From Escherichia coli (lineage in GTDB: Bacteria > Pseudomonadota > Gammaproteobacteria > Enterobacterales > Enterobacteriaceae), in assembly GCF_003334305.1 (NCBI RefSeq), contig NZ_QOWS01000086.1: a stretch of DNA of 298 bases. The stretch is one strand, 5' to 3'. Shown here one piece after another: positions 2-298 of the stretch (positions within the stretch are counted from its first letter, which is position 1; every line of letters starts with the position of its first letter). The notes beneath the pieces are model-generated. The model searched no databases. It had not been told where the DNA came from and worked only from the letters and a program-made list of their open reading frames with translations. The position numbers and the translations under genes were made by a program.

Positions 2-77
2 TGGTGGGTCGTGCAGGATTCGAACCTGCGACCAATTGATTAAAAGTCAACTGCTCTACCAACTGAGCTAACGACCC
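2..77 (-). tRNA. lysZ: tRNA-Lys (anticodon UUU), complete, 76 nt including genomically encoded CCA
   Basis: Seen in sequence: the reverse complement of 2-77 reads GGGTCGTTAGCTCAGTTGGTAGAGCAGTTGACTTTTAATCAATTGGTCGCAGGTTCGAATCCTGCACGACCCACCA. It folds as a canonical cloverleaf: acceptor stem GGGTCGT/ACGACCC, D-stem GCTC/GAGC, anticodon stem GTTGA/TCAAT (one G-U pair), 7-nt anticodon loop CTTTTAA with anticodon TTT (plus-strand 42-44 = aaa), 5-nt variable loop, T-stem GCAGG/CCTGC with T-loop TTCGAAT, discriminator A, then CCA. Established knowledge: this matches the E. coli-type tRNA-Lys(UUU) as I remember it. The paralog symbol is tentative: lysZ is the downstream gene if the 146-bp spacer is the lysY-lysZ interval of E. 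coli K-12, which I recall but cannot verify; all paralogs share one sequence, so the name depends only on genomic position. Confidence 0.96.
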
Positions 78-111
78 ATACGGGTGTTACCTGAAAGATT
101 TCTACTCGGGG

Positions 112-128
112 CCAATCTTTAAGATTGG
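112..128. repeat. Perfect 7-bp inverted repeat (ccaatct / agattgg) with 3-nt loop, overlapping the CCA of the tRNA-like fragment
   Basis: Seen in sequence: 112-118 ccaatct pairs with 122-128 agattgg, loop 119-121 tta. In the transcript it is CCAAUCU-UAA-AGAUUGG, whose first three nucleotides are the CCA of the pseudo 3' end. A second copy of aaagatt at 94-100 can pair with aatcttt at 114-120, giving a mutually exclusive alternative stem. Confidence 0.35.
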
Positions 129-143
129 TGTGTCGTGCAGGAT
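124..143 (-). repeat. tRNA-Lys 3'-end-like fragment (degenerate partial copy of T-stem 3' strand + acceptor 3' strand + CCA) inside the spacer
   Basis: Seen in sequence: 124-143 attggtgtgtcgtgcaggat versus 222-241 attggtgggtcgtgcaggat, 19/20 identical with a single t/g difference at 131. Similarity is lost beyond 144: gactcgc versus tcgaacc in the real gene. On the transcribed strand it reads ATCCTGCACGACACACCAAT, against ATCCTGCACGACCCACCAAT at the real 3' end. No intact cloverleaf can be built around it, so it is not a functional tRNA. Confidence 0.6.
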
Positions 144-168
144 GACTCGCTTCGCTTGCCCTACGGGC

Positions 169-184
169 CGTTGCTGGCGCAACG
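169..184. repeat. GC-rich 6-bp inverted repeat (cgttgc / gcaacg) with 4-nt loop
   Basis: Seen in sequence: 169-174 cgttgc pairs with 179-184 gcaacg, loop 175-178 tggc. No U-tract follows on either strand, so it is not an intrinsic terminator. Confidence 0.35.
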
Positions 185-197
185 TTATCCTTCACGC

Positions 198-220
198 TTA
201 ACATCTGAGTTTGATGTTAA
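198..220. repeat. Perfect 8-bp inverted repeat (ttaacatc / gatgttaa) with 7-nt loop, AU-rich, beginning 4 nt after the CCA end of the upstream tRNA in transcript orientation
   Basis: Seen in sequence: 198-205 ttaacatc is the exact reverse complement of 213-220 gatgttaa, with loop 206-212 tgagttt. In the minus-strand transcript this is UUAACAUC-AAACUCA-GAUGUUAA, 3 nt after the CCA of the 224-298 tRNA. Function is not determinable from sequence. Confidence 0.4.
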
Positions 221-223
221 AAT

Positions 224-298
224 TGGTGGGTCGTGCAGGATTCGAACCTGCGACCAATTGATTAAAAGTCAACTGCTCTACCAACTGAGCTAACGACC
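224..298 (-). tRNA. lysY: tRNA-Lys (anticodon UUU), 75 of 76 nt present; 5'-terminal G truncated by window edge
   Basis: Seen in sequence: 223-298 is identical base for base to 1-76, so 224-298 is the same tRNA from the encoded CCA (224-226, tgg on plus) through tRNA nucleotide 2. Nucleotide 1 would lie at position 299, outside the window. Anticodon at 264-266 (aaa on plus = UUU). The paralog symbol is tentative, as for the first copy: this is the upstream gene of the pair in the transcribed orientation. Confidence 0.94.

Follow-up and report, generated by a model that had tools for sequence, protein, structure and literature searches.

Stems that pair a leader with a trailer bracket mature RNAs whose processing they serve, as in the rRNA operons. 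Two stems that have a strand in common, and so cannot coexist, are familiar from bistable RNA switches such as the terminator/antiterminator attenuators. RtT units of the tyrT type (RF00391) are repeats linked to tRNA genes: they stand behind a tRNA gene and carry a copy of its tail with the CCA.

Processing of the lysT transcript of E. coli, roughly 1100 nt in length, has been described in some detail. RNase P separates it in the 3'→5' direction, is inefficient at cleaving RNAs with a long 3' trailer, and leaves long Lys trailers to be removed by RNase II/PNPase and then by RNase T, while RNase E cuts the long spacers only if RNase P is inactive (PMC4176162). The basis of this directionality, on lysT and on valU, was left open, with transcript secondary structure or Hfq suggested (PMC4176162). 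Pairing of the RCCA end is an established anti-determinant of RNase P and inhibits formation of the active complex (PMC9433436); the pairing of RCCA with leader and the leader stem-loops of valV-valW belong here (PMC9433436, PMC4176162), and inhibitory 3' trailers are already recognised (PMC4176162, PMC9433436). On RtT units in lysT or on the spacer structures considered below, a search of the literature found nothing specific, the mentions of lysY and lysZ being lists of genes.

A first-pass annotation of one lysT spacer proposed that overlapping inverted repeats allow two mutually exclusive hairpins, one of which folds the CCA of a tRNA-like fragment into a stem, and that the alternation could influence the order of processing. 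The hairpins are these:

112-128, minus strand: hairpin 1, RNA 5'-CCAAUCU UAA AGAUUGG-3', closing on the CCA or pseudo-CCA (predicted fold and comparative evidence)
94-120, minus strand: hairpin 2, RNA AAAGAUU (120 to 114) with AAUCUUU (100 to 94), a real complementarity whose structure is unsupported

I propose a different account, to which as a whole I give a probability of about 0.7: hairpin 1 is the native trailer hairpin of a tRNA-Lys, displaced by an insertion; hairpin 2 is incidental; on genuine tRNA-Lys precursors hairpin 1, together with a helix between leader and trailer, would act as a lock on the RCCA end; and at this locus the hairpin would be a relic. All structures discussed are thermodynamic predictions, joined to comparative counts.

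The lysY–lysZ spacer and its RtT insertion

The window, by which I mean the whole stretch of 298 nucleotides that was analysed, is the lysY–lysZ spacer of the E. coli lysT operon, an operon flanked by cpoB and nadA. Its parts, in the order of transcription, are as follows.

224-298, minus strand: upstream tRNA-Lys(UUU), lysY, its first base lost at the window edge (ARAGORN; Rfam tRNA, 71.1 bits)
217-241, minus strand: direct repeat copy 1, the true tRNA 3' end plus AUUUUAA, a boundary of the insertion (repeat search)
126-223, minus strand (equally 119-216, given the flanking direct repeat): RtT-family repeat unit of 98 nt, after the true lysY CCA (Rfam RF00391)
198-220, minus strand: first RtT hairpin, RNA UUAACAUC AAACUCA GAUGUUAA, an inverted repeat of 8 bp found in the MFE structures
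126-143, minus strand: pseudo 3' end of tRNA-Lys, RNA AUCCUGCACGACACACCA, 18 nt, within direct repeat D2, its CCA the complement of 126-128
119-143, minus strand: direct repeat copy 2, the pseudo 3' end plus AUCUUAA, a boundary of the insertion (repeat search)
78-125, minus strand: ancestral lysY-lysZ spacer of 48 nt, lysY trailer plus lysZ leader, which is the whole spacer in RtT-free alleles
2-77, minus strand: downstream tRNA-Lys(UUU), lysZ or, in strains with four Lys genes, a lysZ/lysQ fusion (ARAGORN; Rfam tRNA, 79.2 bits)

Because both tRNA-Lys genes lie on the minus strand, transcription is from that strand and the RNA is the reverse complement of the window: lysY, then the spacer (223→78), then the next tRNA-Lys. 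A reading of the plus strand is ruled out, as both tRNAs and the RtT unit match on the minus strand; the stems are unaffected by this correction, since inverted repeats are strand-symmetric. By ARAGORN and Rfam the two tRNA-Lys genes are identical. The 146-nt spacer has matches in 5354 of 5426 complete E. coli genomes, and the record of strain RM9131 is among those that cover the window completely at an identity of 100% (two BLAST pieces, joined). This strain carries four Lys genes only, lysZ and lysQ being merged, with a terminator directly 3' of the downstream tRNA-Lys. A scan of the window found no promoter-like site on either strand, and the only open reading frames are mechanical ones, all of which run into the tRNA genes.

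The covariance model for RtT (RF00391) matches window 126-292 on the minus strand with a score of 51.7 bits (E=1.7e-09), above the gathering score of 45. In its 5' part the alignment falls on the real tRNA and includes an insertion of 44 nt, and the homology is convincing only in the core and at the 3' end. The unit also sits where members of the family sit, inside a tRNA operon, and it ends in a copy of the 3' end of the upstream tRNA, CCA included. The tRNA-like fragment seen in the first pass is therefore a real one: window 126-143 copies the tRNA-Lys tail in 17 of its 18 nucleotides, with a single C→A change. The change falls at window 132, in what was the acceptor strand, the pseudo tail reading ACACACCA where K-12 has ACCCACCA (locus L002, 1590-1597). 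The direct repeats that bound the insertion, 119-143 and 217-241, are 25 nt long and 92% identical.

In constrained folds the segment AUCCUGCACG of the pseudo tail is predicted to pair with the 5' strand of the RtT unit, CGUGAAGGAU, and the CCA to pair within hairpin 1. The closing stem of the unit (CGUG-A-AGGAU/AUCCU-G-CACG) and hairpin 1 would together keep this decoy tail almost fully paired. At the other end of the unit, the first RtT hairpin begins 4 nt 3' of the true lysY CCA (window 224-226). Hairpin 1 itself is no part of the described RtT structure: the model stops at the pseudo-CCA (window 126), its final 9 positions being unpaired, and the hairpin reaches 14 nt further, into an older spacer that exists without any RtT unit.

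That older spacer can be seen on its own in E. coli AF10 and SCU-116. Both lack the RtT unit between lysY and lysZ and have a spacer of 48 nt, in which AUUUUAAA(G/C)AUUGGUUCCGAGUAGAAAUCUUUCAGGUAACACCCGUAU comes immediately after the genuine lysY CCA, the RtT-free continuation after the CCA being AUUUUAAAGAUUGG. Spacers of this 48-nt type without RtT are found in many other Enterobacteriaceae (spacers among the matches listed). It follows from the absence of the unit in AF10 and SCU-116 that window 78-125 is the old spacer and that hairpin 1, as predicted, is a native trailer hairpin. It now closes on a copied CCA because an RtT unit carrying a copied tail was inserted between the direct repeats. 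This is what the first-pass annotation missed: the hairpin that it saw on a pseudo-CCA is native to the trailer of a genuine tRNA-Lys and was moved when an RtT-type unit was inserted. The RtT-bearing form of the spacer is nonetheless the majority form in E. coli, at 4066 of 5426 genomes; the exact window allele accounts for 1412 of the 5426 and the exact AF10 allele for 891.

Units of this type number three to five in a lysT operon. Sister units stand after lysT, after lysW, and after the lysQ terminator (47.5-60.2 bits), and at five sites of the operon the units vary independently among E. coli, K-12 having all five and SCU-116 none. The number of tRNA-Lys copies in the operon varies as well.

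A few observations on the family may be set down here. RefSeq annotates only the unit past the lysQ terminator, calling it "RtT sRNA, processed from tyrT transcript" despite its place in the lysT locus, and the unannotated internal units (51.7-60.2 bits) outscore it. This last unit repeats the lysQ terminator after its pseudo-CCA (L001, 1863-1987; L002, 1960-2085). Photorhabdus has tandem arrays in which up to six units recur every 176 or 352 nt (L006, 8994-9589; L023, 8544-10306). Each unit ends in a copy of the tRNA-Lys tail, after which come the same 36-nt spacer and the 5' start of tRNA-Lys; the arrays look like large expansions of tRNA-linked repeats. There is also an Rfam match to YrlA (Y RNA-like) across the lysZ-lysQ pair (L001, 1667-1807), below threshold at 44 bits against 69, which is probably caused by the tRNA-like module of the YrlA family.

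The hairpin on the CCA

The stem sequences, coordinates, pair numbers and loop sizes given in the first pass are exact for both hairpins. Hairpin 1 has its arms at 112-118 (CCAATCT) and 122-128 (AGATTGG), 7 bp with a loop of 3 nt; hairpin 2 has its arms at 94-100 (AAAGATT) and 114-120 (AATCTTT), 7 bp with a loop of 13 nt. Partition-function folding, the check that had been suggested, finds hairpin 1 stable in every context. Its predicted energy is -6.4 kcal/mol; in six sequence contexts the pairing probability is at least 0.98 for six of the seven pairs and 0.79-0.81 for the innermost, so that the complement of 126-128, the pseudo-CCA, is indeed predicted to lie in a stem. Folds at the scale of the operon, in which the tRNAs are held as cloverleaves, give the same probabilities, and the hairpin appears in both the MFE and the centroid structures of both the spacer and the whole window. 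It does not resemble an intrinsic (Rho-independent) terminator: there is no terminator-like site at 94-128 on either strand, and the RNA goes on to read CCCCGAG.

The segment that adjoins hairpin 1 on its 3' side, window 101-111 (RNA GGCCCCGAGUAGA; columns 31-37 of alignment A2), is predicted to be mostly single-stranded. Its sequence, (N)NCCGAGU(A/G)AAA, is nearly invariant across genera, with the C, A and T positions invariant, and it could be a site for a nuclease or another protein.

How widely is the hairpin kept? Species-representative genomes were scanned for a tRNA-Lys tail separated by 36-60 nt from a tRNA-Lys head, which gave at least 120 stretches; from these and four E. coli loci 197 spacers were extracted. 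Among the matches listed the orthologs come to 35 distinct spacers, drawn from about 15 genera of enterobacteria. Pairing of the trailer with the CC of the CCA is predicted at P>0.5 in 31 of the 35 (median 0.97), as against 17% of shuffles and 14% of other Lys-Lys spacers (all among the matches listed). In trailers of the lysZ-lysQ type among the matches listed the figure is 0 of 26. Nor is the pairing tied to the pseudo-CCA. Where there is no insert, in E. coli alleles and in other Enterobacteriaceae, the trailer segment ..AUUGG(U) pairs with the real discriminator and CCA and with the first bases of the trailer; the paired RCCA is on a genuine pre-tRNA in the RtT-free alleles and in 18 of the 35 distinct orthologous spacers among the matches listed.

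The stem takes several forms in the orthologs: CCAAUCU/AGAUUGG, CCAUCU/AGAUGG, CCACUU/AAGUGG, ACCAAUU/AAUUGGU and ACCAGU/AUUGGU. In the MAFFT alignment the stem is paired in 89% of cells, a share that drops to 19-45% once the 3' partner is slid. Changes on both sides of the stem occur in 18 cells, and covariation is 0.254 against 0.101, a value matched in 0 of 500 shuffles, a control that ignores phylogeny. Pair 10-30, for example, is AU in 19 cases, CG in 5, UA in 3 and GU in 1. RNAalifold, unaided, predicts a 5-bp core of the hairpin. The compensatory changes come from few independent events, roughly one in Kluyvera and one or two in the group with CCAC/GUGG, and three of the eight pairs are unable to covary because the invariant CCA takes part in them.

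One might suppose that a hairpin with no function at the level of RNA has simply been carried along, kept by the closeness of the species and by gene conversion among the units with tRNA tails. The RtT units are, after all, gained and lost by recombination at repeated tRNA tails, the compensatory events are few, and in the window the hairpin sits on a pseudo-CCA, where it has no obvious role in processing. Moreover, about 20% of E. coli genomes have a weakened form: the SCU-116 allele, present exactly in 1064 of the 5426, has a G→C change in the segment common to both hairpins that trims hairpin 1 to 5-6 bp and breaks hairpin 2. I consider neutrality unlikely, since the stem stays paired although its inner part has four different sequences among the genera, and does so in true-CCA and pseudo-CCA contexts alike, since the loop drifts freely in length and sequence while the arms stay complementary, and since the neighbouring lysZ-lysQ trailers of the same operon have no such pairing.

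The palindrome might instead matter as DNA, in the form of a cruciform, a recombination site or a protein-binding site involved in the gain and loss of RtT units. It does fall at the junction marked by the 25-nt direct repeat on either side of the insertion. The idea is scarcely credible, for the wobbles seen at three pairs (UG in 6 cases, UG in 4, GU in 1) are compatible with the transcribed strand only, each tolerated U-G pair corresponding to a mismatched A-C on the opposite strand and to a mismatched G-T in DNA, and the palindrome is present also in species and alleles without the insert. As far as predicted structures can, the folds and the comparative counts show that hairpin 1 forms in the RNA with the (A)CCA included, is conserved, and is native to the 3' trailer of tRNA-Lys.

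Sequestration of the CCA is not a general rule for tRNA-Lys trailers. Besides the lysZ-lysQ trailers, it fails in the spacers that lead from Lys to Val, of which 27% exceed a probability of 0.5 (median 0.02); among these only the lysW-valZ type of Escherichia and Kluyvera sequesters the CCA. There a pairing between the lysW trailer and the end of the tRNA, CCCACC...GGUGGG, is predicted at P about 0.99 (L001, 1290-1311; L004, 1309-1330). This pairing, seen only in Escherichia and Kluyvera, takes in bases of the acceptor strand and could compete with the acceptor stem.

The second hairpin and a predicted helix around the downstream tRNA

The two hairpins overlap in five bases, 114-118, so the first-pass claim of mutual exclusion holds to the extent that both stems exist and cannot coexist. 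The further claim is that they alternate, the balance between them setting the order or rate of precursor processing. There is something to be said for it. Among dinucleotide shuffles of the 146-nt spacer, 7% contain a perfect hairpin of 7 bp or more (loop 3-20), with a mean of 0.075 per shuffle, and the real spacer has 3; an overlapping pair of alternative hairpins was found in 0 of 5000 shuffles, an arrangement beyond chance. A complementarity like that of hairpin 2 also recurs in Kluyvera georgiana, at -8.2 kcal/mol.

A switch demands more than two stems with a strand in common, and here the energies are unbalanced. Hairpin 2 is predicted at -3.0 kcal/mol, weaker than hairpin 1 by 3.4 kcal/mol; its probability is at most 0.02 in the shortest context, set against at least 0.98 for hairpin 1, and at most 0.002 in longer contexts and that of the operon, so the suggested folding check goes against it. 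Transcription does not help, for both arms of hairpin 1 are made before the 3' arm of hairpin 2, so that kinetics would not favor hairpin 2 either. The comparison of orthologs, also suggested in the first pass, finds hairpin 1 with compensatory changes and hairpin 2 not conserved. Among the orthologs in the matches listed, cognate arms of hairpin 2 pair no better than non-cognate ones (-3.6 vs -3.8 kcal/mol, permutation p=0.81), and on the alignment only 63.7% of cells are paired, with slid controls reaching up to 53%. The hairpin is broken outright by the G→C allele in its 1064 genomes. Finally, unlike the attenuators, the spacer offers no trigger and no expression platform.

There remains the 3' arm of hairpin 2, which has a covarying partner elsewhere, in a helix better supported than the hairpin. 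The strand concerned is:

90-100, minus strand: leader strand, RNA AAUCUUUCAGG, read from 100 to 90 (cognate-duplex test, pair counts and constrained folds)

This strand, which includes the arm, is complementary to CCUGAAUGAUU, a segment located beyond window position 1 that begins 0-1 nt 3' of the CCA of the downstream tRNA. The helix would stand 12 nt before the 5' end of that tRNA and would thus enclose it (in L001, 1624-1634 with 1724-1734). In the spacers among the matches listed, cognate duplexes of leader and trailer have a mean energy of -12.4 kcal/mol and non-cognate duplexes -8.8, a difference met in 0 of 2000 permutations. The complementary segments flank the mature RNA with different sequences across the Enterobacteriaceae, held together by covariation: UUCAGG/CCUGAA, UUCAGGC/GCCUGAA, UUCAGGA/UCCUGAA, CUUCGAAG/CUUCGAAG and CUCU…/…AGAG. 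Pair 55-81 is CG in 9 cases and AU in 2. Counts of pairs on alignment A2 understate the helix because MAFFT shifts the CUUCGAAG group by 2 columns, and the test of duplex energies is the fairer measure. In constrained folds the probability of the helix is 0.85-1.0 where the trailer lies directly 3' of the tRNA (L001, L003, L004) and about 0.3 in K-12, where another RtT unit intervenes.

The likeness to the stems of rRNA operons is plain, in that the AAUCUUUCAGG/CCUGAAUGAUU helix brackets a mature RNA and covaries between species. It differs in bracketing a tRNA and in starting 0-1 nt after the CCA, and its 10 pairs over 11 nt, with one mismatch, are too short for a classical RNase III site.

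In RM9131, the record examined among the four-Lys strains identical to the window, the segment that would pair with the leader strand has been deleted from the trailer. The leader strand is there predicted to pair with the 5' closing strand of the RtT unit, UGAAGGAU, at P≈0.44, while hairpin 2 has P=0.0003. This pairing (L126, 553-562 with 651-660; window about 90-99 with 188-197), known from the folding model only, encloses hairpin 1 and competes with the RtT closing stem on the pseudo tail.

Hairpin 2 exists because the leader strand has AAUCUU in common with the 5' arm of hairpin 1. It is almost certainly an accident of sequence, and in this the other thought of the first-pass annotation, that the arrangement is a by-product of a repeated AAGATT, was right. 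With hairpin 2 unsupported and only hairpin 1 conserved, there is no bistable switch, and I regard alternation of the two as very improbable.

Processing order in the lysT operon

If not a switch, could hairpin 1 still bear on processing? For a genuine CCA the role is plausible by analogy, because pairing of RCCA is an anti-determinant of RNase P and the operon is processed 3'→5'. As in the systems where the anti-determinant is known, RCCA is predicted to lie in a helix, on genuine tRNA-Lys alleles, within an operon that RNase P processes directionally. Unlike those systems, the partner is the 3' trailer and not the leader nucleotides N(-1)N(-2), and an effect on cleavage would have to be supposed from the likeness. 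The idea does not apply directly to the pseudo-CCA, for the CCA that is paired in the window is a copy without a tRNA body.

The mechanism I propose is as follows. On a genuine tRNA-Lys, hairpin 1 would be a structural anti-determinant, a lock on the RCCA end that lasts as long as the trailer does, and the leader-trailer helix would be a second such lock. Both would hinder RNase P until a cut by RNase P downstream exposes the trailer to 3' exonucleases. With RCCA buried in the trailer until the trailer is degraded, the observed 3'→5' order would be favored. In the window allele hairpin 1 would be a relic carried over with the old spacer which, together with the RtT closing stem, may at most keep the decoy tail fully paired.

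Several facts weigh against this account. Trailers that sequester the CCA are not general in the Lys-to-Val spacers, hairpin 1 is down to 5-6 bp in about a fifth of E. coli genomes, and the four-Lys strains identical to the window have lost the trailer partner of the leader strand. Any lock on lysY must in addition be dispensable, because the RtT-bearing arrangement, which leaves the true CCA outside hairpin 1, is the one found in most E. coli.

A different use of the same hairpin would be as a barrier to exonucleases. Hairpin 1 would stall RNase II/PNPase after the cut of RNase P at lysZ and so set a defined 3' end; the CCA of a true tRNA would be protected from over-trimming, and in the window allele the released RtT-like RNA would be stabilised. 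These are the enzymes that reportedly remove long Lys trailers ahead of RNase T (PMC4176162), the hairpin abuts or includes the CCA, and the RtT of tyrT is annotated as a processed and released RNA. A stem of -6 kcal/mol is a weak block, and the published study of processing maps no 3' ends at hairpin 1; I consider the barrier improbable. It is compatible with the proposal of locks on RCCA and does not exclude it.

As for the window itself, its two hairpins do not make a switch. The one on the pseudo-CCA is inherited and marks the junction of a known repeat family, an ordinary junction made of an RtT unit and a pre-tRNA trailer hairpin that is conserved, to judge by the predicted folds.

The strongest form of the proposal would have RNase P physically held to its 3'→5', one-at-a-time order by hairpin 1 and the leader-trailer helix, with RtT insertions shifting the lock from a tRNA to a decoy. 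I hold this to be doubtful. If it were true, each tRNA would become a good substrate for RNase P only after the cut downstream had let exonucleases remove its trailer, and RtT insertions would modulate the processing of individual tRNA-Lys copies from strain to strain. A trailer hairpin that buries RCCA and a covarying leader-trailer helix are concrete, mutable candidates for the structure that sets the directionality, and the natural alleles of E. coli with and without the RtT insert offer ready-made comparisons.
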